A DNA stretch of 64,000 bases from an uncultured Planctomycetaceae bacterium (GCA_963833985.1 CAWIAD010000002.1:512001-576000), one strand, 5' to 3'; counted from the stretch's first letter, positions 34,637 through 48,240 are shown. Numbers and translations are program-made. Notes: a model not told the origin generated them from the letters alone.

Positions 34637-37189
34637 ATGAGAGCCGTGCCGAACCTGTGCGTCATGATGGCCGTCCTCGGGCTCAGCCTCGGCCCAAGGG
34701 TCATGGCGGATGAGCGGTTGACGTTCGAGCGCGACGTCCGACCGATTCTCAAGGAGTTCTGCCTCGACTGCCACGGTGGCGGCGATGCCCCAAAGGGTCA
34801 GCTCGACCTGAGACTGAAACGCCTTGCCGAGCGCGGCGGGGACAGCGGTCCGGCGATCGTGGCGGGCAAGCCGGAAGAAAGCTATCTGCTGGACCGGCTG
34901 CGGGATGCCGAGATGCCCCCGGGCGAGAAGAAGGTCTCGCGCGAGAAGATCGCCGTGATCGAGCGCTGGATCGCTCAGGGCGCCGCCACAGTCCGACCCG
35001 AGCCGCAGCAGTTGCCGCCCGGTATCGACATCTCGCCGGAAGAGCGCTCGCACTGGGCCTACCAACCGATCCGCAGGCCGGTGCCGCCGTCCTTTCGTGG
35101 CGAGGACCGGGTGCGCACGCCGATCGATGCGCTTGTGTCCCGGCGATTGCGTGAGCACGGATTCTCCCTCGCTCCAGACGCCGATCGGCGGACCCTCATC
35201 CGCCGCGCCTCGTACGACCTCACGGGTCTGCCGCCGACCCAACGCGCGCTCGAGACTTTCCTTGCCGATACAAGGAGCGACGCGTACGAGCGGCTCATCG
35301 ACCTGCTCCTCGACTCGCCACGCTATGGCGAGCGGTGGGCGCGGCACTGGCTGGATACGGCCGGCTATGCGGACTCCGATGGTAACGGCAACGAGGATAC
35401 CGACCGTCCTTATGCCTACAAGTACCGCGACTACGTCATCCGGGCGTTCAACGCCGACAAACCGCTCGACCAGTTCCTCATCGAGCAGCTTGCCGGCGAC
35501 GAGCTGGTGCCCCGGCCCTGGAACAACCTCACGCCCCGCCAGGCGGAGACGCTGGCCGCCACGGGCTTCCTGCGGATGGCGGCCGACGGCACCTCGTCGA
35601 GCGCAGGCGACATGGCCCTGGCGTCCAACCAGGTCGTGGCCGACACGCTGAAGATCGTGGGCTCGACGCTGCTGGGCCTCACCGTCGGCTGCGCCCAGTG
35701 CCACGATCATCGCTATGATCCGATCCCCCAGTCCGACTATTACCGGCTTCGCGCCGTGTTCGAGCCGGCACTCGATCCCCAGCACTGGCGGAGACCGGGG
35801 CAGCGCCTCGTCTCCCTCTACCACGATGCCGATCGCGCCCGCGCCGCGGCCATCGGGGCGGAAGTCGGCAAGCTCCAGGCCGAGGTCGACAAGAAAACGG
35901 CGAAGTTCGTTGCGGTCGCGCTCGAGAAAGAGCTGGGAAAGTTCCCCGAGCCCCTGCGTACCAGGCTGCGGCTGGCACGTCAGACCGCGGCAGAGAAGCG
36001 CACGGCCGAGCAGAAGGCGCTGCTGGCTTCCCATCCCAGTGTGAACCTCACGGCCGGCGTGCTCTACCAGTACAACCAGGCCGCGGCCGATGAGCTCAAG
36101 AAAGACCAGGCTCGCGTCAATGCCAAGCGTGCGGAGATGCCCGTCGAGGACTTCGTGGGCGTGGCCGACGAGCAGCCCGGTCTGCGGCCAGAGACCCACC
36201 TGTTTCATCGTGGCGATCATCGCCAGCCCAGGCAGGTTGTTGTACCGGGTGATCTGACCATCGCCGCGGCTGACGGCACACGCTTGGAGATCCGCGACGC
36301 CCCCGGCAACGCACCAAGCTCGGGCAGGCGACTAGCCTACGCTCAGCATCTGGTCAGCGGCCGGCATCCCCTGCTTGGCCGCGCGCTGGTCAATCGCGTC
36401 TGGCTGCATCACTTCGGCCGCGGCCTGGTGGCAACCCCGGGCGACTTCGGCACGCTCGGTTCGCGGCCGACGCACCCCGAGCTGCTGGACTGGCTGGCCG
36501 ACGAGCTCGCGGCCTCCGGCTGGAGCCTGAAGCGGCTGCACCGGCTGATCATGTGCTCGACGGTGTACCGGCAGTCGTCGCGCCGCAATCCGGCGTTCGA
36601 CGCCCTGGATTCCGAGAATGCCCTCCTGGGTCGCTATCCCGTGCGCAGGCTCGACGCGGAATCGCTCCGCGACAGCATCCTGCTCCTGAGTGGACGGCTC
36701 GACCCGACGCTGTACGGCCCGGCGGTGGCGGTGGCCGAGGACTCCGTCGGCCTCGTCAACCCCGCCAACGACTCGCCCAGGCGGAGCATTTATCTTCAGG
36801 TCAAACGCACGCGGCCGGTGTCGCTGCTCGCGGCGTTCAACGCGCCGGTCATGACGGTGAACTGCGAGCGCCGGGTTCCCAGCACGACTGCATTGCAATC
36901 GCTTATGCTCATGAATAGCGATTTTGTACTCAAGGCCGCCAGCGCGATGGCCGCGGGGCTCCAATCGGGAGTCGCGAAATCTGACCTCGCCCGGCAGATC
37001 GAGCAGGCGTGGCAGCGCGTGTACCAGCGTCCGATCACGACCGAGGAGCTGGACTGGGCGCAGGGCTTCGCGGCCGAACAGCGTGCCGCGCTCGATCGCA
37101 CCGGAGCCGCCGGCGACCGGAGCCTGTCCGCGCTTGCCAGCCTGGTCCAGCAACTTCTTGACTCCAACGAGTTTCTCTATGTGGATTGA
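34637..37189 (+). CDS. Planctomycete cytochrome c domain protein with DUF1549/DUF1553 (PSCyt1/PSCyt2/PSD1)
   Basis: CLDCH and CAQCHDH haem motifs, YGERWARHWLD, PTHPELLDWLA. Confidence 0.9.
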   Translation: MRAVPNLCVMMAVLGLSLGPRVMADERLTFERDVRPILKEFCLDCHGGGDAPKGQLDLRLKRLAERGGDSGPAIVAGKPEESYLLDRLRDAEMPPGEKKVSREKIAVIERWIAQGAATVRPEPQQLPPGIDISPEERSHWAYQPIRRPVPPSFRGEDRVRTPIDALVSRRLREHGFSLAPDADRRTLIRRASYDLTGLPPTQRALETFLADTRSDAYERLIDLLLDSPRYGERWARHWLDTAGYADSDGNGNEDTDRPYAYKYRDYVIRAFNADKPLDQFLIEQLAGDELVPRPWNNLTPRQAETLAATGFLRMAADGTSSSAGDMALASNQVVADTLKIVGSTLLGLTVGCAQCHDHRYDPIPQSDYYRLRAVFEPALDPQHWRRPGQRLVSLYHDADRARAAAIGAEVGKLQAEVDKKTAKFVAVALEKELGKFPEPLRTRLRLARQTAAEKRTAEQKALLASHPSVNLTAGVLYQYNQAAADELKKDQARVNAKRAEMPVEDFVGVADEQPGLRPETHLFHRGDHRQPRQVVVPGDLTIAAADGTRLEIRDAPGNAPSSGRRLAYAQHLVSGRHPLLGRALVNRVWLHHFGRGLVATPGDFGTLGSRPTHPELLDWLADELAASGWSLKRLHRLIMCSTVYRQSSRRNPAFDALDSENALLGRYPVRRLDAESLRDSILLLSGRLDPTLYGPAVAVAEDSVGLVNPANDSPRRSIYLQVKRTRPVSLLAAFNAPVMTVNCERRVPSTTALQSLMLMNSDFVLKAASAMAAGLQSGVAKSDLARQIEQAWQRVYQRPITTEELDWAQGFAAEQRAALDRTGAAGDRSLSALASLVQQLLDSNEFLYVD

Positions 37190-38633
37190 TCCCCGCACAC
37201 AAAGCCGTCGCGCCTTCCTGGCCAGCACCTCGTTTGGCGTTGGTGCCGTCGCGCTCGCGGACCTGATGCGGCAGGAGGGGCTGCTGGCCGACACGGTCAA
37301 GAAGCCCGGCGAGAACCTGCCGCTGGACCTCCACCCGCGGGCGCCTCACTTCGCCCCCAGGGCGACGGCCCTGATCTCGCTGTTCATGCACGGGGGCCCG
37401 TCGCACGTCGACCTGTTCGATCCCAAGCCCCAGTTGAGCCGGTCCCACGGCACCGAGTACGGCGGCGATGTTGTCTTCAGTTTCGTCAACCGCGCCAGCA
37501 AGAAGCTCTTCGGCTCACCCTGGAAGTTCTCCAGGCACGGCCAGTGCGGCACGGAGGTCTCCGAGCTCCTGCCCGAGACGGCCCGCATCGTCGACGACCT
37601 GTGTGTGCTCCGCTCGATGCACACCGGGCACAACGGGCACGAGGTCTCCATTCGCTACTTCCACGGTGGCCTGCCGGCCATTGCCGGACGGCCCACGATG
37701 GGAAGCTGGATCGTCTACGGCCTGGGCAGCGAATCGAGGTCGCTGCCGTCATACATGGTCCTGGCCGATCCCGAGGGCCATCCCGTGGACGGCACGATTA
37801 ACTGGTCGAGCGGGTTCATGCCCACGCTCTACCAGGGGACGGTGCTCCGCGCCCAGGAGCCCAGGATCCTCAACCTCGACCCGCCTGGCCAGCTCGCTGG
37901 ATTGCCTCAGCGGCAGAACCTGGCGTTCCTCGACCGGCTCAATCGCCGCCACCTGGCACAGCACCCGGGCGAATCCGACCTGGAATCTCGGATCCACAGC
38001 TACGAGCTGGCCGCGGCCATGCAGACGGCGGCGAAGGAGGCGCTCGACATTTCGAGCGAGCCCGCGCACATCCGCCGGCTCTACGGCCTGGATGACGATG
38101 CGACCCGGGAATACGGCACGCGCTGTTTGATCGCCCGCAGGCTGGTGGAGCGCGGAGTACGCTTCGTACAGCTCTTTCTGGGTGGCCAGCCGTGGGATCA
38201 CCACACCGCCATTCGCCAGAGTTTGCCTGCCATCTGCCGGCGCACCGACCGGCCGGCAGCGGCGTTGGTGACGGATCTCAAGCAGCGCGGACTGCTGGAC
38301 ACGACGCTGGTGCACTGGGGCGGCGAGATCGGCCGGTTGCCGGTCAGCGAGGGAAGCCTCGACGCCAGCGCCGGGCGCGACCACAACGGCCAGGGCTTCT
38401 CAATCTGGATGGCCGGCGGCGGCATCCAGGGCGGCCAGACTTTTGGCGCCACCGACGAGGTCGGCCATCGCGCGGTCGAGAACGTCGTCACCCCCAACGA
38501 CTTTCAGGCCACGGTCCTGCACCTCTTCGGCCTGGACCACAACCGGTTGGTGTACCACGCCAGCGGCCGCGAGCAGCGCCTCACCGACGGCCGACCGGCC
38601 CGCGTCGTCAAGGAGATCCTGAGGAACGCGTGA
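37179..38633 (+). CDS. DUF1501 domain protein (Tat signal)
   Basis: SRRAFL, LFMHGGPSHVDLFDPKP, ARRLVERGVRFVQ, WGGEIGR, GRDHN. Confidence 0.9.
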   Translation: MWIDPRTQSRRAFLASTSFGVGAVALADLMRQEGLLADTVKKPGENLPLDLHPRAPHFAPRATALISLFMHGGPSHVDLFDPKPQLSRSHGTEYGGDVVFSFVNRASKKLFGSPWKFSRHGQCGTEVSELLPETARIVDDLCVLRSMHTGHNGHEVSIRYFHGGLPAIAGRPTMGSWIVYGLGSESRSLPSYMVLADPEGHPVDGTINWSSGFMPTLYQGTVLRAQEPRILNLDPPGQLAGLPQRQNLAFLDRLNRRHLAQHPGESDLESRIHSYELAAAMQTAAKEALDISSEPAHIRRLYGLDDDATREYGTRCLIARRLVERGVRFVQLFLGGQPWDHHTAIRQSLPAICRRTDRPAAALVTDLKQRGLLDTTLVHWGGEIGRLPVSEGSLDASAGRDHNGQGFSIWMAGGGIQGGQTFGATDEVGHRAVENVVTPNDFQATVLHLFGLDHNRLVYHASGREQRLTDGRPARVVKEILRNA

Positions 38634-38649
38634 AACGTCCGGGTAGATT

Positions 38650-38945
38650 TCACGGCAGCAGATCCACCACCGCGATCGTGCCGGCAAACTGCCCGTCGAT
38701 CGTGACCGGCACGACCTGCCCGGGCGAAACATCGACACGGTTGCAATAGACGCCCGCGGCAGGGTCGGCGGCGGTGTGAACCTCGAGCTGACGGTCGCGC
38801 AGGTTCAAGACCCAATACACCGGGATCTCGGCGCGCGCGTACATTTCCAGCTTCTTGCCACGGTCGGTGGCCAGGCTCTTCTCCGCCACCTCGACCACCA
38901 GGCAACAATCCGCGGCCGTGGCATCGCGCGAGGCGTCATACTCGA
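38650..38945 (-). pseudogene. Uma2/DUF820 family endonuclease, C-terminal fragment only
   Basis: LVVEVAEKSLATDRGKKLEMYARAEIPVYWVLNL; the upstream half is replaced by the repeat array. Confidence 0.75.
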
Positions 38946-39336
38946 AGGATAAGGCGAAGGATAAGGAAGGATAAAAGGTGATAAGGGGCCACCCACGCTT
39001 CTGAGAGTGATAAGGGAGAGTGATAAGGAGTGATAAGGGGCCACCCACACTTCTGGCCTCCTACTCAAGAGTGATAAGGTGATAAGTGATAATAAGTGAT
39101 AAGGGGCCACCCACACTTCTGGCCTCCTACTTAAGTGATAAGGTGATAAGGAAGGTGATAAGAAGGTGATAAGGGGCCACCCACACTTCTGGCCTCCTAC
39201 TGGACAAACGGCTTCGACTTGGATACGTTTGTTCATTATGAGATGGGCCAGGTCGAAGTCGACCGCAGGAGGATAAGAGCAGGAGGATAACAAGGATAAG
39301 CAAGGATAAGCACAGGATAAGGGCCACCCACACTTC
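38945..39336 (-). repeat. Left end array: 5 copies of GAAG(T/C)GTGGGTGGCCC, each followed by 3-5 short (C)TTATC-initiated units
   Basis: On the plus strand GATAAGGG(G)CCACCCAC(A/G)CTTC starts at 38980, 39032, 39098, 39168 and 39316, interspersed with GATAA(G) units. Confidence 0.9.
39201..39229 (+). promoter_or_regulatory. Sigma70-type promoter copy within a diverged duplicate of the element end
   Basis: TGGACA-N17-TACGTT; hexamers identical to the copy at 39347 while the spacer differs. Confidence 0.5.
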
Positions 39337-39346
39337 CTTCAGGTAC

Positions 39347-39375
39347 TGGACAAACGGTGCCGGATTAGGTACGTT
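39347..39375 (+). promoter_or_regulatory. Sigma70-type promoter of the Y1 transposase
   Basis: TGGACA-N17-TACGTT, followed by the palindrome GGTCGAAGTCGACC, SD AGGAG and ATG 39448. Confidence 0.6.
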
Positions 39376-39447
39376 TGATCATCACTAGGCGGACCAGGTC
39401 GAAGTCGACCGGGTCACCGATCGTCAGTCGATCAGGAGCACACCAGC

Positions 39448-40815
39448 ATGGCACGGCGGAATCGTGCGGAAGTCGTCGTCGCGGATGAGATGGGGGTCTA
39501 CCACTGTGTGCAGCGGATCGTACGCAGGGCGTTTCTCTGCGGGGTCGATCCGCTCTCAGGCAAGTCCTACGATCATCGCAGGGCATGGATCCGGGACCGC
39601 CTCGAGTCGCTCGCGGGGCTCTTCGGCGTGGAGATCGCCGCCTTTGCGGTGATGTCCAACCATCTTCATGTGATGCTCCGCATCCGTCCTGATGTGGTCA
39701 TGCTCTGGCCCGATCACGAGGTCGCCAGGCGCTGGCTGGTCCTCTTCCCCGGCCGGGTGGAGACCACGCCGGATCCCTCCACAATCCCGACCGCCATGGC
39801 CTGGCCGGTCGAACAGCACGGTCCAAGCCAGGCACCCGGCACCACGGCCTTGCCCTCCAGCGGAGCATTCACCGACCCGCTGGAACAGGCGGTCGCCATC
39901 CTCACCGCGGATCCTTCGCTGATGGCAACGATCCGCGGCCGACTCTCCAGTCTCTCATGGTTCATGCGTGCCCTGGCCGAGCCGATCGCCCGCCGGGCCA
40001 ACCGCGAGGACCGCTGCACCGGCCGCTTCTGGGAGGGCCGGTTCAAGTCGCAACGGCTGCTGGACGAGGCGGCCTTGCTGGCGTGCAGCATCTACGTCGA
40101 TCTGAACCCGATTCGCGCCGGGCTGTCTGATCGACCGGAGACCAGCGAGTTGACTTCCGCCCACGAGCGGATCATGGCCCTGCTCCAGGATGTCCCAGCC
40201 CACTGTGCACCCAGCGCATCACGTCTTGACGTCAGTCCTGTGGCAGTGGCACGGCCGAACGAGGCTCTGTCGTCTGCGGCGGAACAGGATACGCAAGTGC
40301 TTGTGGGAGAACCCCCTGTGGCGTCACCGGCTGCGGAAACCGTCCGCCGGGCCCGACCGCGCGAACACGAACGCGAGCAGGCTCACATGACGCTCCGCGA
40401 TGGCTGGCTCAGCCCGATCGAGCTGGATGAGCGCACCGAGCCGCTGACCACAGCCATGGCAGAACCGCGAGCGGCCGCGGCCGAGACGCCGGGCGAGCCG
40501 ACGCGAGCGCGGCGGGCCAGCAATCGCGGGCTGCTGCCGATGACGCTGGAGAACTACCTCGATTTGCTGGACTGGACGGGTCGACAAATGCGAACCGGGA
40601 GCCTTGGCGTGATACCCGCGGGGCTGGCGTCGCTTCTCGATCGGCTGCAAATCTGCGCCGGGACATGGCTGGAGACAGTGACGCGGTTCGGCCGCCGGTT
40701 CCACCGCGCGGTGGGGCTGGCAGACCACCTGAAGGCGGAAGCTCAGCGGCTGGGCGTGACCTGGCTGCACGGCGTCCGCTGGAGCCAGCAAGCGTTCGCA
40801 CCACCCGGTTCGTGA
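39448..40815 (+). CDS. HUH/Y1 tyrosine transposase (IS200-related, RAYT-like long form)
   Basis: YHCVQRIVRRAFLCG, HUH motif MSNHLH, FWEGRFKSQ, catalytic Tyr in YVDLNPIRAG, C-terminal YLDLLDWTGR. Confidence 0.88.
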   Translation: MARRNRAEVVVADEMGVYHCVQRIVRRAFLCGVDPLSGKSYDHRRAWIRDRLESLAGLFGVEIAAFAVMSNHLHVMLRIRPDVVMLWPDHEVARRWLVLFPGRVETTPDPSTIPTAMAWPVEQHGPSQAPGTTALPSSGAFTDPLEQAVAILTADPSLMATIRGRLSSLSWFMRALAEPIARRANREDRCTGRFWEGRFKSQRLLDEAALLACSIYVDLNPIRAGLSDRPETSELTSAHERIMALLQDVPAHCAPSASRLDVSPVAVARPNEALSSAAEQDTQVLVGEPPVASPAAETVRRARPREHEREQAHMTLRDGWLSPIELDERTEPLTTAMAEPRAAAAETPGEPTRARRASNRGLLPMTLENYLDLLDWTGRQMRTGSLGVIPAGLASLLDRLQICAGTWLETVTRFGRRFHRAVGLADHLKAEAQRLGVTWLHGVRWSQQAFAPPGS

Positions 40816-41079
40816 GCCCGTGGGTCCCCGCCTCGTTTCGAGCGATCGCGGCAAGTCTGGTAGGCCAGGTCTGATCGAGGCCGTGTGACCATCGCGGTCC
40901 TCGATTCGCGAATTCGGCACCGATGGCCAGTGCTCCGTCGCGTGGAAGGATTGTCCACGCCCGCGCAGCGAGCCTCCGCACGTTTTTGCTCCTCCAAGTT
41001 CGGGTCTGGGATGTCGGGACGCGCCGGGAGTGACTCACCGCCGCGGCGCGAGCATCCTGCAGAATGTGGGTGGCCCTAA

Positions 41080-42589
41080 TTCTACTGTATCCTGGGGTTG
41101 ACGAACTGTAAGGTTTTTTCTGATATTCGCTTCCGTCAAGGATATTACAAGGAAGCGAGGGCGTCATGGATCGACGATACGAAGCACGGTTGGCTGACAT
41201 GCTGGCACAATCGCAGGTGTCGCCTGACTTGGTCGATGGTCTGCTGGAACGGTTGGACGTCTTCATCGAGCCGTTCGCTGCGACCCTGAGTGAACCTGAA
41301 CAACATCGACATGCAACCGAGTACGTTACCGGTCTGCTGTCGAAGCTTGAGCACAAGACCGGCGAGGGAATCGCTTATCTCCACGATCAAGAACGACAAG
41401 GAATCCAAAAGTTCATCGGGCACGTGCCATGGGATCATCAACCCCTGCTCACGATCCTGGCGCAGCAGGTCGGCGAGCAACTGGGCGAGAAGGATGGGGT
41501 GATTATCTTCGACCCTTCGGGCTTCCCCAAGAAAGGGACTATGTCGGTGGGCGTCGCGCGGCAGTGGTGCGGCCGGCTGGGGAAGGTTGAGAACTGTCAG
41601 GTTGGCGTCTACATGGCTTATGCGTCTAGAAAAGAGCATACGATTACCAATGTAAGGCTTTACTTGCCCAAGGAATGGGCCAAGGATCGCGACCGCCGGA
41701 ACAAGGCTGGCGTTCCCAAGTCCATCAAGTTCCAGACGCGCCATCAGTTGGCCCTGGCGATGCTGGATGAGCAAGGTGGGTTGCTGCCACACGCGTGGGT
41801 GGCGGGGGACGATGAAATGGGCCGTCCCGCGAGTTTTCGCCAGGCGTTGAGGGAGCGGGGGGAGCAGTATCTGTTGGCGGTTCCGTCGAACACGACGATC
41901 CGCGATCTGGAGGCACCGCCACCGGAATATGGGGGGCGGGGTCAACCCCCCAAGGCTCCTTTCATGCGTGTGGATCATTGGCGTGCGGCCCTGCCGGAAT
42001 CGGCGTGGACGAGGCTCGACGTCCGTGATGGCGAGAAGGGACCTTTGGTGGTCGACGCGATCAAGCGGCGCGTCCAATCTCGAGGACCGGGCAATCGTGC
42101 AGGTTTCGAGGAGGTCCTCTTCATCACGCGTGAGCAACAGGCCGATGGAACAGTTAAACATGATTATTATTTATCAAATAGTAAAGCCGAAACTCCGTTG
42201 ATCGAATTTGGCCGGGTGGCCAAACTGGCGCATCGGATCGAGGAGTGCCTGGAGCGGGGCAAAGGGGAGGCGGGCCTGGCCGATTACCAGGTGCGGAACT
42301 GGATCGCCTGGCATCACCATCAAACCTTGTCGCTCGTGGCCGCGTGGTTCCTGAATCAGGAGACGCGGCGGGGAAAAAATACAGACACCGGCATTGACGT
42401 CACCGCGGTTGCGGCAACTGATCGCAGGGATCATCGAGGAACGTCTCAACGTCAACAGCCCCGAGAAGCTCTCCCGGTGCACCACACGTTGGTTGGAACG
42501 CAACGAGCTCGCCCGATTCTTCCAGCATTACTCACGCAAACTCTTACCCCCTTTGAAGAACCAACTACGAACGTAGAGATACAGTAGAA
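41080..42589 (+). mobile_element. IS701-family insertion sequence (1510 bp)
   Basis: IRs TTCTACTGTATC / GATACAGTAGAA; 4-bp target duplication CTAA at 41076-41079 and 42590-42593. Confidence 0.9.
41166..42587 (+). CDS. IS701-family DDE transposase
   Basis: FDPSGFPKKGTMSVGVARQWCGRLGKVENCQVGV, IEECLERGKGEAGLADYQVRNW; an alternative C-terminus follows GGGAAAAAAT (42371-42380). Confidence 0.9.
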   Translation: MDRRYEARLADMLAQSQVSPDLVDGLLERLDVFIEPFAATLSEPEQHRHATEYVTGLLSKLEHKTGEGIAYLHDQERQGIQKFIGHVPWDHQPLLTILAQQVGEQLGEKDGVIIFDPSGFPKKGTMSVGVARQWCGRLGKVENCQVGVYMAYASRKEHTITNVRLYLPKEWAKDRDRRNKAGVPKSIKFQTRHQLALAMLDEQGGLLPHAWVAGDDEMGRPASFRQALRERGEQYLLAVPSNTTIRDLEAPPPEYGGRGQPPKAPFMRVDHWRAALPESAWTRLDVRDGEKGPLVVDAIKRRVQSRGPGNRAGFEEVLFITREQQADGTVKHDYYLSNSKAETPLIEFGRVAKLAHRIEECLERGKGEAGLADYQVRNWIAWHHHQTLSLVAAWFLNQETRRGKNTDTGIDVTAVAATDRRDHRGTSQRQQPREALPVHHTLVGTQRARPILPALLTQTLTPFEEPTTNVEIQ

Positions 42590-43299
42590 CTAATCAGACA
42601 CCCTAATCAGACACCCTGCAGAATGTGGGTGGCCCCAATCAGACACCGCGGCGCGAGCATCCCGCAGAATGTGGATGGCCCCAATCACGCACCAATCAGA
42701 CGCCAATCAGACGCAGAATGTGGATGGCCCTAATTAGACACCATCGCGGTCCTCGATTCGCGAATTCGGCACCGATGGCCAGTGCTCCGTCGCGTGGAAG
42801 GATTGTCCACGCCCGCGCAGCGAGCCTCCGCACGTTTTTGCTCCTCCAAGTTCGGGTCTGGGATGTCGGGACGCGCCGGGAGTGACTCACCGCCGCGGCG
42901 CGAGCATCCTGCAGAATGTGGGTGGCCCTAATCAGACACCCTCTAATCAGACACCCTGCAGAATGTGGGTGGCCCCAATCAGACACCGCGGCGCGAGCAT
43001 CCCGCAGAATGTGGATGGCCCCAATCACGCACCAATCAGACGCCAATCAGACGCAGAATGTGGATGGCCCTAATTAGACACCATCGCGGTCCTCGATTCG
43101 CGAATTCGGCACCGATGGCCAGTGCTCCGTCGCGTGGAAGGATTGTCCACGCCCGCGCAGCGAGCCTCCGCACGTTTTTGCTCCTCCAAGTTCGGGTCTG
43201 GGATGTCGGGACGCGCCGGGAGTGACTCACCGCCGCGGCGCGAGCATCCTGCAGAATGTGGGTGGCCCTAATCAGACACCCTGCAGAATGTGGGTGGCC

Positions 43300-43375
43300 C
43301 CAAGCAGAGTGCCAAGCAGAGTGCCAAGCAGAGTGCCAAGCAGAGTGCCAAGCAGAACCGCCCCAAGCAGAGTGC
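43300..43375 (+). repeat. 12-bp tandem repeat (CCAAGCAGAGTG)x4, one variant, one final copy
   Basis: Begins exactly at the 3' end of the last GTGGGTGGCCC motif. Confidence 0.95.
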
Positions 43376-43515
43376 AAACGTTGAGGATGAAGGCAGTGGC
43401 TGCGCTGAAAGTCAGCATGCGATGCAGGCCGGGAGGGCAACCGGTCTCTTCTCTCTTTTGTAATGCCATGAATCTTCAAGAGTTACGTTCACGATGGAGG
43501 GTCCCCAGCCAGGTC

Positions 43516-43531
43516 GGGCATGAAAGCTGCT
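43516..43531 (+). promoter_or_regulatory. Possible sigma54 promoter for gltBD
   Basis: GGGCATGAAAGCTGCT has GG-N10-GC spacing but three mismatches to consensus; ~125 bp upstream of gltB. Confidence 0.3.
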
Positions 43532-43657
43532 CTTTCGCCTGCGTTCTGTTCACGGGTCGTTCTCGCAGGTTCGTGCCTTTCACAGCTGAGACTCAGTCAA
43601 GTAGCTTCTTCGCCGCATGACCGGCTCAGCGTTTGAACGGTCAGGCCGGAACTGTCC

Positions 43658-46600
43658 ATGGCACAACTCAAGACTCCGGTTGACTTCGTATCGCTGCCGC
43701 TTGCGAAAGCAGGGCTCTATGACCCGGCTTTCGAGCGAGACTCGTGCGGGGTGGGGTTCGTGGCCGATCTCAGCCGCCGGAAGAGCCACGCGACGATTCA
43801 GAGCGGACTCCAGGTGCTCAAGAACCTGCAACACCGCGGCGCGTGCGGTTGCGATCAGGATACGGGCGACGGCGCGGGCATCCTCATGCAATTGCCCGAC
43901 CATTTCTTTCGAACCGAGAACGTGGCGCTGGCGGACCGGCTGCCCGCCGACGGAGATTATGGCGTGGCATTTGTCTTCCTGCCCCGCGGTGCATCCCAGC
44001 GCCTGATCTGCCATCGGACGCTGGAGGCGATTGTGGCCGCCGAGGGACAGAACATTCTGGGATGGCGTGACGTCCCCGTTGTCTCCTCGTCGATCGGCTG
44101 GCTGGCGCGCTCGCAAGAACCGGTGATGGAGCAGTTATTCATCGGCCGTGGCGAGGGGACGGCCGCGGGGGACGCGTTCGAGCGGAAACTCTATCTGATT
44201 CGCCGCCAGGCCGAGAAGTGGGCCTACTCGGAAAGCATCGGCAACGATGCCCTCGGTTTCGCGATCGCCAGTTGCAGCGCACGCACGATCGTCTACAAGG
44301 GCATGCTCAAGCCGGATCAGTTGCCGGTCTATTTTCCGGACCTGGGCGACTCCCGAATGGAATCGGCCCTGGCCCTGGTGCACAGCCGGTACAGCACCAA
44401 TACGTTTCCGCGGTGGGGGCTGGCACAGCCCTTCCACCTGCTGGCGCACAATGGAGAGATCAATACCCTTCAGGGCAACCTGCACTGGATGCAGGCGCGC
44501 CAGTCCCGGATGAAAAGCCGTGTGCTGGGCGCCGATCTGGAGAAGACCCTGCCACTCGAGTTCGAGGGCATGAGCGACTCGGCGGCCGTTGACCAGGTGC
44601 TTGCACTCCTGGTCCACTCGGGCCGTAGCCTTCCCCATGCGCTCATGATGCTCGTGCCCGAAGCCTACGAGGCAGACCGCTTCATCGACCCGGCCCGCCG
44701 CGCCTTCTACCAGTACCACAGCGGCCTGATGGAGCCCTGGGATGGGCCGGCCAGCCTGGTGTTCTGTGACGGCGTCCGGATCGGGGCCATGCTCGACCGC
44801 AATGGGCTGCGGCCCGGCCGCTACGCCGTCACGCACGATAACCTGGTGGTCCTGGCCAGCGAAGCCGGCGTACTGCCGATCCCGCCCGAGGCAATCCGGC
44901 TCTCGGGACGGCTGCAACCGGGAACGATCTTCCTGGTCGACCTCGCCGCGGGGCAGATCGTCGGCGATGCCGAGCTCAAAGAGTCGATCTGTCGCGCTCA
45001 GCCTTATGGACTGTGGCTGGAAAAGCACCAGGTCCACCTGGCGGACCTGCCCGCGCCGGCCGATGTCCCCGCGGCCGATCTCGAGACGCTGCTCGCCCGC
45101 CAGCAGGCCTTTGGCTACACCCAGGAGGATATCACGCGCATCCTGCTGCCCATGGCCCAGGACGGCAAGGAGCCGGTCTCGAGCATGGGCACCGACATCC
45201 CGCTGGCCGTGCTCAGCCGGCGCAGTCAGATCCTCCCCAATTACTTCAAGCAGCTCTTTGCTCAGGTCACGAATCCGCCCATTGATCCGATCCGCGAGAA
45301 GATCGTCATGAGCACCGAGACTCTCCTGGGTTCCGAGCAGAACCTGCTCGAGGAATCCCCGGAGCATGCTCGGCTCTTGCGTCTCAAGTCGCCCACGCTC
45401 AGCAACGCCGAACTGGCACAAGTGCGAGCCATGCGGTCGGTGGGCTTTCGGCCCCAGACGCTGTCCATCCTCTTCGACCGCAGCGCGGGCGAGGCTGATC
45501 TGGCGCCGGCGCTCGATCGCCTCTGTGCCACGGCCTTGCAGGCGGTCGACCGGGGTGCCACGATCCTCATCCTCTCGGATCGCGGCGTGAATGCCGACCA
45601 GGTGCCGATTCCCCCGCTGCTGGCAACGGCTGCCGTGCACCACCATCTCATTCGCAAGGGCCAGCGCACCCGCTGCGGGATCGTGGTCGAAACCGGCGAG
45701 GCGCGGGAGATTCACCACTTCGCGCTTTTGATCGGCTATGGCGCGGGGGCCGTGAACCCGTACCTCGTCGCCGAGACCTTCGAGGGCCTGGCGCGCGAGC
45801 AGTTGCTCCTGGAGGCTCAAGGCGCACCGCTGGAGCCCGGTCAGGCGTTGAAGAACTACACGAAAGCCATCGACGCGGGGTTGCTGAAGATCTTCAGCAA
45901 GATGGGCATCAGCACTCTGCTGAGCTATCGCGGTGCCCAGGTATTCGAGGCCATCGGCCTGAACCAGGCGGTCATTGACCAGTATTTCCCGGGCACGCCC
46001 AGCCGGATCGGTGGCATTGGACTGGAGATCATCGCGCGGGAGGTGCTGCAGCGTGTCGAGGTGGCGTTCCCGGGCGCGGCCGGTCCCGAGATCCCGCAGC
46101 TCGATCCCGGCGGTGAGGTCATGTGGCGGCGCCGGGGCGAGCACCACATGTGGAACCCCGAGACGATCCAGAAACTCCAGCACGCCCTCAAGAAGCAGGA
46201 GTTTTCCAGCTACAAGGAGTTTGCGGCCGCCAGCAACGACGAGAGCCGGCAGTTCTGCACGCTCCGCGGTCTGCTGGAGATCAAGCCCGCGCGCAAGCCA
46301 ATCCCGCTGGAGATCGTCGAGCCCGCCGCGGAGATCGTCAAGCGGTTCTGCACCGGCGCGATGAGCTTCGGCAGCATCAGCAAGGAGGCCCATGAATCGC
46401 TCGCCATCGCGATGAACCGGATCGGCGGCCGCAGCAACACGGGCGAAGGAGGTGAGGACCCCGCCCGGTTCCGCCGCGACGCCAACGGCGACTCTCGCAA
46501 CAGTGCCATCAAGCAGGTGGCCAGCGGGCGCTTCGGCGTCACCGCCCACTACCTGGCCAGTGCCCTGGAGATCCAGATCAAGATGGCCCAGGGGGCCAAG

Positions 46601-48240
46601 CCGGGCGAAGGAGGTCAGTTACCCGGCCACAAGGTGGACAGCTTCATCGCCAAGACACGGCACAGCACACCGGGGGTGGGACTGATCTCGCCTCCCCCCC
46701 ACCACGACATTTACTCGATCGAGGACCTGGCACAACTGATCTTCGATCTCAAGAACGCGAACCCGCACGCGGAGGTTTCGGTCAAGCTGGTGGCGGCCGC
46801 CGGCGTGGGAACCATCGCCACGGGAGTCGCCAAGGGATACGCTGACCGCATTCTCATCAGTGGCGACGGCGGCGGTACGGGAGCCTCGCCGCTTTCGAGC
46901 ATTCGCCACGCAGGTGTTCCCTGGGAGCTCGGCCTGGCCGAGACCCAGCAGACTCTCGTGCGCAACGGGCTGCGGGGCCGGGTCAGGCTCCAGACCGACG
47001 GCCAGATCAAGACCGGACGCGACGTCATCGTGGCCGCCTGCCTGGCGCAGAGGAATACGGCTTCGCCACGGCGCCGTTGATCGCCATGGGCTGCGTGATG
47101 ATGCGGAAGTGCCACCTGAACACTTGCCCGGTGGGCATCGCCACGCAGGACCCGGTGCTTCGCGCGCAGTTCTCCGGAACGCCCGAGCAGGTGGTCAACT
47201 ACTTCTTCTTCGTGGCCGAGGAAGTGCGGGAACAGCTCAGCGTCATGGGCTTTCGCACGCTCGACGAGATTGTCGGCCGGGCGGACCTGCTCGTTCCGGC
47301 CGACCGCCAGCAGCACTGGAAAGCCAAGCACCTCAATCTCCAGGCCATCCTCGAGGTCCCCAAGGTTCCCCATGGAACGCCGGTCCGTCGCGTCGAGCGC
47401 CAGCCCGACGTGCTGGCTGACCAGCTCGACTGGGAACTGCTGCGTCTCTGCACCGATGCCGTGGAGCACCAGAAGCGCGTCCAGCGGTCGCTGTTGATCT
47501 CCAACCGCAATCGGACGGTGGGCACCCTGCTCAGCTACTTCGTCACCAAGAAGTACGGCGAGCACGGGCTGCGCGAGGACACGATCGACATCCAGTTCAC
47601 CGGCAGCGCGGGGCAGAGCTTCGGGGCGTTCCTGACCCGGGGTATCACCTTGCGTATTCGAGGCGACGCCAACGATTACGCGGGCAAGGGGCTCTCGGGA
47701 GGAAAACTCGTGGTCGCCCCGCCCGCGCAGGCTGGTTTCACCGGCGGTCAGAACGTGATCGTGGGTAACGTTGCGCTCTACGGCGCAACCGCTGGCGAGG
47801 CTTTCTTCCGGGGCTGCGCCGGCGAGCGGTTCGCGGTTCGAAACAGCGGGGCCAAGGCCGTCGTCGAGGGCGTGGGCGACCACGCCTGCGAGTACATGAC
47901 CGGCGGCGTCGTGGTCGTCCTGGGCGAGACCGGCCGGAACTTCGCCGCGGGCATGAGTGGCGGTTACGCGTTCGTGCACGACCCCGCGGGCCGCTTCCGT
48001 GATCGCTGCAACCTCGAGATGGTCGATCTTGTCGCGGTCGATGATTACAAGGACGTGGGCTTGCTGAGCAACCTCATCAACCGCCACGTGCTCTACACCG
48101 GCTCGGACATCGGCAACGAGATCGTCAACGACTTCTCCAATGCCCTGGGAGCTTTCATCAAGGTCCTTCCCCGCGATTACAAGCGGGTTCTGGAGCAGAA
48201 CAAGATCGTCCAGAGGCAATGGGAGCTGATCAATGGCTGA
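43658..48240 (+). CDS. gltB: Glutamate synthase large subunit (frameshift near 47050)
   Basis: [54 protein letters not shown]; second frame [30 protein letters not shown]. Confidence 0.95.

Follow-up and report, generated by a model that had tools for sequence, protein, structure and literature searches.

We analysed a window of 64,000 nucleotides (nt) from an uncultured Planctomycetaceae bacterium (GCA_963833985.1 CAWIAD010000002.1:512001-576000; source genome G000, 10.2 Mb), in which a gene for an HUH/Y1 transposase of 455 amino acids (39448-40815, plus strand; positions follow the window numbering unless a genome or locus is named) stands between two arrays of a short motif. Five copies of GAAG(T/C)GTGGGTGGCCC lie to its left on the minus strand (starts 39336, 39189, 39119, 39053 and 39001) and ten copies of GAATGTGGRTGGCCC to its right on the plus strand (41062, 42621, 42667, 42716, 42914, 42961, 43007, 43056, 43254 and 43286), and our recount agreed with an earlier note, made from the sequence alone, that all 15 face away from the gene. 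Judged from comparisons within and between genomes, the element and its short non-coding derivatives move. The mechanism that we favour, at slightly better than even chances, would have the transposase nick about 11 nt outside the motif, synthesis fill in toward the element and the tyrosine reseal the strand, with transfer of the end giving transposition.

To describe the ends, we counted positions starting with the base that follows the TG(G/T)C core and compared sister ends in 212 pairs drawn from 108 ends. Identity was 0.97 at +1, 0.53-0.67 at +9 to +12, 0.40 at +13 and at most 0.33 from +14, consistent with an element that carries a tail of about 10-13 nt beyond the motif and meets new DNA there, raggedly. 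Of 266 ends, 37 had a tandem duplication, compared with 63 among 3,000 random sites (first-pass count: 17 of 149 ends against 36 of 4,507 controls), which makes first duplications 7- to 14-fold enriched at motif ends. They ended at +9 to +17 in 36 of the 37 cases (mode +11) and started between -11 and +8, mostly at -3 to +3, with two of 37 above +3. Overlap was at most 1 nt at 30 of these 37 duplications (58 of 63 in the control), which makes annealing unnecessary. Among the 185 junctions of 16 arrays, 121 ended at +10 to +15, and unit starts reached inward to -187; when these arrays were parsed, IS701 was removed 3 bases off, which touches the first junction of one array. That transposition and stutter share one boundary would point to the cut site. 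Two positions given in the earlier note have to be moved accordingly outward: it placed the nick just 3' of the motif, where the duplication boundary and the new-flank junction both lie about 11 nt further out, and it let the units end at the motif, which is absent from many short array units, the real unit ends lying about 10-15 nt beyond the TGGC core. The inner context shortened outward in six of the eight gene-attached arrays with at least four motifs (rho -0.55 to -0.79), and array growth appears to be mostly outward.

Mobility was assessed from further copies. A second copy at G000:C2:2518841-2520769 showed 14 differences in 1,930 alignment columns, one of them a frameshift, and its transposase gene, a 99% copy at G000:C2:2519136, confines the earlier claim of a single Y1 gene to the window, where it holds. 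Its flanks and its outer arrays are both unlike those of the window copy; the arrays would therefore have grown after or during the move, independently at each locus, in keeping with the claim that they were built locally. Its left flank (G000:C2:2518408-2518791) is a decayed gene with three stops, the N-terminal part of which does not lie right of the element; it is presumably an ECF sigma factor gene, for which Pfam gave no confirmation owing to the stop codons. Pirellulaceae SH449 (G001, L100-L104) carries five copies with coding sequences 1-6 nt apart and three different right ends of about 240 nt, which switch just past the stop codon. G000 also contains dispersed short non-coding elements, about 55-170 nt long, that bear the motif at each end, as well as a sister family, present in 14 near-complete copies, that has a motif of its own and stutters likewise. 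Motif-ended short elements cluster at G000:C2:488000-511000, C2:1449000-1461000, C2:2584800-2588800 and C2:2630400-2634300, several of them directly abutting fragments of the sister-family transposase gene.

We then examined the flanks of 79 homologous loci (L021-L099), retaining left flanks of at least 200 nt (71) and right flanks of at least 500 nt (54). GGRTGGCM read outward in 66 of the left flanks and in 31 of the right ones, and inward in 2 and 1, respectively, with a background of 0.05 per 400 nt. Motif variants (GGRTGGCCC, GGRTGGCAY, GGGTGTC, GACTGTC and GCMTGTC) required 9 changes on a tree of 66 proteins against 31.9 after shuffling, the tree being a quick one, the labels the analyst's own patterns and many rows near-copies. 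The outward motif thus occurs throughout the family, with variants distributed along the protein tree, a pattern that the earlier note proposed to look for; gammaproteobacterial relatives have GGGTGTC-like motifs. Most ends in the 79 loci are plain, with two or more copies in 25 of 126 motif clusters and four or more in one of 126. Arrays reach a much greater size in G005 (46 motifs over 1,332 nt in one and 26 motifs in another), and one in G003 has 8 motifs. Although GTGG is present in the motif, no conserved stem follows it across homologues.

Three side observations concern these ends. Of 68 left ends in the same loci, 57 have GTCAA (TTGAC on the gene strand, -35-like) no more than 22 nt inward of the motif, as does 1 of 30 right ends; the promoter may therefore abut the bound transposase, which suggests self-repression. 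In 22 elements among L032-L097, an element's own left and right tails shared 3.64 matches against 2.72 between elements (+3 to +9, p 0.0004), a likeness that kinship may explain, or else exchange between ends. In its right flank (L021:2300-2600), the closest named homologue carries a different motif, AATCGGTCTGACCCC, which fits GGGGWSAS when read inward and shows similar stutter.

In the proposed course of events, the HUH enzyme would bind the end signal and nick the strand reading into the element roughly one helical turn beyond the signal, the exact base varying by a few positions, and the element-side 5' end would be left on the tyrosine. Transfer of the bound end to a remote target would join the element, or one of its ends, to new DNA with a tail of about 11 nt, and uncoordinated ends would produce one-sided junctions and adjacent deletions. 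Without transfer, a host polymerase would extend the free 3'-OH of the flank into the element, displacing the bound strand and usually stopping at the bound protein after 7-16 nt, sometimes far later; the new 3'-OH would then attack the phosphotyrosine, and replication would fix the tandem duplication. As each added motif copy would be a new site, arrays would grow, mostly outward. We favour a nick on the inward-reading strand because it would be the simplest way to explain the fixed outer end, the free inner start, the starts at the motif edge and the independence from microhomology. The sequence of nicking, extension and resealing is borrowed from a proposal for the growth of BIMEs (PMC3333891, legend of Fig. 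7B).

Several results weigh against this mechanism or against mobility. Sister ends do not all diverge at one place: the boundary is ragged, and in some cases, the outer tail of the second copy among them, the split falls at +2 to +8. The sister pairs are moreover not independent, many coming from one genome (G022). The parser of array junctions accepted starts only up to +4, so that the start peak is partly built in. No outward shortening was seen in the right array of the window, in L065 or in two orphan arrays, and 23 of the 54 right flanks had no motif within 800 nt. The differing right ends of SH449 could also come from gene conversion. None of 38 elements (duplicates included) proved to be a clean insertion between two host halves when flanks were compared with single G000 reading frames, a comparison that was informative, with a match near the junction, for only 7 of the 38, and no target duplication stood out in this same set of 38 elements, 7 of them informative. 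No empty Shewanella site was found in a plasmid search.

The rival that survives best, possible but in our estimate rather unlikely, has the outward-reading strand nicked at the same distance, which would leave the 3'-OH on the element side and require no polymerase step, followed by one-ended transfer into the sister chromatid or by excision of a single-stranded DNA circle and its re-insertion, as for IS608 and in the excision model of BIMEs. It draws on the chemistry established for IS200/IS605 and TnpA-REP (PMC3333891, accessible text) and accounts for the one-sided junctions, the missing microhomology and the long units; by itself, however, it leaves the motif-edge starts and the lengths of 7-16 nt unexplained. 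Circles of that length would be without the motif, and units of this kind are probably too small to be recognised as circles; sister exchange between two ragged cuts should in turn yield changes of 1-5 nt.

It is very improbable that the enzyme merely binds the motif, or is irrelevant, and that the arrays owe their origin to ordinary slippage during replication and to unequal recombination within low-complexity tails. The tails are often C/T- or A/G-rich, and both the 340-nt duplication described below and the later growth of big arrays could be driven by RecA or slippage, but the enriched first duplications have an outer boundary that equals the transposition junction, and they differ in sequence at every locus, mostly without microhomology. 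We consider about equally improbable a staggered double cut by a dimer (outward strand near +1, inward strand near +11), in which fill-in and rejoining would duplicate the stagger of about 10 nt like a target duplication free of any insertion. Starts peaking at -3 to +3, ends at +10 to +14 and the sister ends that part at +2 to +5 would suit it, but no step appears between +1 and +3 in sister-end identity, a second mechanism would be required for units that start at -7 to -187, and known Y1 enzymes cleave single strands according to the accessible text of PMC6006769. An assembly artefact is scarcely credible: contigs of a soil read run leave the arrays and the 340-nt duplicate uncovered, but arrays built alike and yet different occur at the second locus and at orphan loci, others are present in the independently assembled G003 and G005 and in many short-contig genomes, and the array is interrupted by an IS701 that has a clean target duplication.

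In the window, the left array (38943-39336, minus strand) reads outward as the five motif copies plus short stutter units with TTATC(AC) tails. Its innermost motif (39316-39336, minus strand) reads inward as GGGCCACCCAC and the outer copies as GGGGCCAC. On the plus strand, the right inner end (40816-41079), which includes the innermost right motif (41062-41076), is common to the second genomic copy, and the right array proper (42590-43374) holds the nine further motif copies in units of 11 to about 200 nt with the tail AATCAGACAC or AAGCAGAGTG. The (T/C)AATC that was said to follow the right copies mostly does so in 6 of 10. Four of the ten right motifs lie in one tandem duplication of 340 nt (42590-43282, plus strand; period 340, 2.0 copies, 99% matches), and the element ends have inverted arms of 19 nt that are 89% complementary. 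Across G000, TGTGGGTGGCCC, the most frequent form of the motif, occurred 47 times against 1.4 expected under an order-5 Markov model. When six end fragments were folded and compared with shuffles, none folded better (z-scores -1.17 to +1.05), so the motif forms no hairpin and the description of it as non-palindromic stands. As a side observation, the motif at 41065-41077 resembles the staphylococcal STAR consensus T(G/A/T)TGTTG(G/T)GGCCC(C/A), a short likeness only; the origin of STAR direct-repeat arrays in staphylococci is given as unknown in the accessible part of PMC3532100.

Immediately left of the element lies the remnant of an Uma2-family host gene (38650-38942, minus strand; Pfam PF05685) that is without its N-terminal half (about 110 codons). 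A tblastn search with 8 paralogues against window positions 36001-46000 matched the C-terminal part alone; the missing part is not right of the element, and the junction is therefore one-sided. The tail of the first right motif is interrupted by an unrelated IS701 of 1,510 nt (41080-42589, plus strand; NCBIfam NF033540, E 2.8e-106), on which the earlier note was silent although it lies within the element span; it has a 4-nt target duplication (CTAA) and 13 near-identical copies in the genome, whose ends and target duplications were compared. The soil read run contained 0.06 of the words, and its two contigs span only 39382-39676, between the arrays. Downstream, 43658-48240 is a region that we take, from its translation alone, to encode the large subunit of glutamate synthase, with the frame split at about 47077.

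G000 contains other Y1 groups. Two subclass 2.1-type genes (G000:C2:3098961 and C2:2427263) have large outward AAAAATGAACTGACAC arrays on both sides, and by eye 7 of 18 ends with the AACTGAC motif of the 2.1-type genes were duplicated, all duplications ending at +10 to +13. A third Y1 gene (C2:6400672) has GATGTCCC ends, and three GTAG-REP RAYT loci have, by eye, ordinary palindromes. Two repeat classes from a de novo scan, TTTTTGCGG and AACCACAGA, were set aside, as they have fixed internal repeats and not the geometry of the element; AACCACAGA (57 sites in G000) belongs to a CACAGAGA-type family of 9-nt repeats, often in inverted pairs, without the +11 geometry. The GC skew of G000 was too flat for a comparison of strand bias. 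Among readings of the arrays, a CRISPR-like one was ruled out by the variable units and a REP-hairpin one by the lack of a stem. The family name ISSod25 was dropped, the passage found placing ISSod25 in the IS91 family.

The transposase carries the catalytic signature NHLH (71-74), WE (195-196, in FWEGRF from 194), YVDLNP (216-221) and TS (236-237). H74, Y216 and L219-N220-P221 are invariant in 110 aligned homologues and H72 almost so; the catalytic HUH and Tyr are also invariant or nearly so in a set of 43 homologues. Family profiles stayed below their cut-offs: this applied to Pfam Y1_Tnp, to NCBIfam NF047646 for RAYT (39.7 bits against 80, short of the REPtron/RAYT threshold) and to NF033573 for IS200 (13.9 bits against 55). 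A structure predicted from the 110-row alignment (mean pLDDT 80.5) gave E. coli TnpA-REP 4ER8 as its best solved match (Z 11.3, rmsd 3.0, 159 aligned), which suggests a common fold; Foldseek ranked 4ER8 first, yet with an E-value of 0.039. The HUH-to-Tyr spacing was 112-113 residues in 62 of 66 homologues and 133-144 in the clade of four that includes the window protein, where about 32 extra residues separate HUH and Tyr (144 against 112-113). Relatives from Alteromonadales and Vibrionales have 318-356 amino acids, the closest named relatives are Isosphaeraceae, and at least 7,765 related proteins were found among 8,000 scored candidates.

For subclass 2.3, Quentin et al. 2018 (PMC6006769) give the motifs NHYH, WE, YVDLNP and TS (their table 1), an HUH-to-Tyr spacing of about 110 residues and a length of about 325 amino acids or more, and nest it in subclass 2.1, which they equate with the TIRYTs of Di Nocera et al. 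2013 (PMC3733652). By motifs and spacing, we assign the window protein to TnpA-Y1 subclass 2.3, within the TIRYT clade. PMC3733652 defines a TIRtron as a Y1 gene whose flanking inverted repeats are not related to GTAG REPs, and by that definition the element is one. GGGGCCAC departs by one mismatch from the TIRYT consensus GGGGWSAS, a consensus that PMC3733652 describes as common to some TIRs only; related clades read inward as GGACAC, GGACAG and AGACAG, matching the WSAS part. The candidate undescribed element of the earlier note thus already has a name in PMC3733652 and a protein group in PMC6006769. Its further point, that the locus fits neither the IS200/IS605 nor the hairpin REP model, is upheld by the missing hairpin, the YVDLNP motif and the profile scores.

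A wider claim, which we put forward tentatively and at clearly less than even chances, is that the TIRYT clade (2.1 and 2.3, thousands of proteins) consists of unrecognised active insertion sequences, whose HUH enzyme would read a linear motif and nick one helical turn outside both inverted ends, with strand-displacement synthesis by the host and with aborted events writing locus-specific tandem repeats of host DNA. If true, such an enzyme would write short tandem repeats into bacterial chromosomes at places set by sequence, and this would explain a class of short tandem repeats peculiar to single loci, along with one-sided deletions, in the genomes of planctomycetes and marine gammaproteobacteria. 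Subclasses 2.1 and 2.3 are the largest class 2 Y1 groups and have no known DNA substrate or mechanism; the locus and its relatives supply a candidate recognition motif, a cut distance of about +11 and a predicted by-product. A nicking and joining enzyme directed by a motif and free of hairpins could also serve as a tool.

Compared with known systems, the element is closest to the TIRtrons. The accessible text of PMC3733652 describes for these a Y1 gene between inverted non-REP repeats with a GGGGWSAS-like core, the repeat being dispersed elsewhere in the genome as singles, dimers and clusters; that text is without a cut position, whole-element copies, nested end arrays or tail stutter. As far as the accessible text of PMC6006769 goes, the TIRtrons described belong to subclasses 2.1, 2.2 and 2.5 and none to 2.3. 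The window protein shares with subclass 2.3 the NHxH, WE, YVDLNP and TS motifs, the long HUH-to-Tyr spacing, the long C-terminal tail and several copies per genome, and the same text reports no evidence that enzymes of subclasses 2.1 and 2.3 move. Our search of the open literature (outside subscription journals, ISfinder and, in PMC3733652, Figure 9 and file S5, which may give related end sequences) found no account of subclass 2.3 ends, mobility, the +11 boundary or stutter. With REPtrons and their RAYTs (E. coli TnpA-REP, accessible text of PMC3333891), the element has in common the fold, the Y..NP motif, cutting away from the bound site and local amplification of repeats, but it has no GTAG foot or hairpin, and a REPtron is said not to travel as one unit. 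The array units of the window element, unlike those of REPtrons, are semi-fixed at one end and free at the other, and their tails derive from the host.

IS200/IS605 elements (IS608, ISDra2) share the HUH/Y1 chemistry, and, as in the window element, no target duplication is seen. They are defined by Y...Q, a short TnpA, subterminal hairpins and distinct left and right ends, whereas the window element has Y..NP (in YVDLNP) in a protein of 455 amino acids, the same signal inverted at both ends, no subterminal hairpins and ragged junctions. IS91-type rolling-circle elements combine a nick at the origin end, polymerase run-in of variable length and one-ended events, and the proposed mechanism would work alike; the window enzyme differs in its single tyrosine and TnpA-REP fold, and its origin-like signal stands at both ends. 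As far as the accessible parts of PMC3733652 and PMC6006769 go, the element is thus of a known type, to which the window and its relatives add an end motif for subclass 2.3, evidence for movement of the element as one unit, and the geometry of the stutter.

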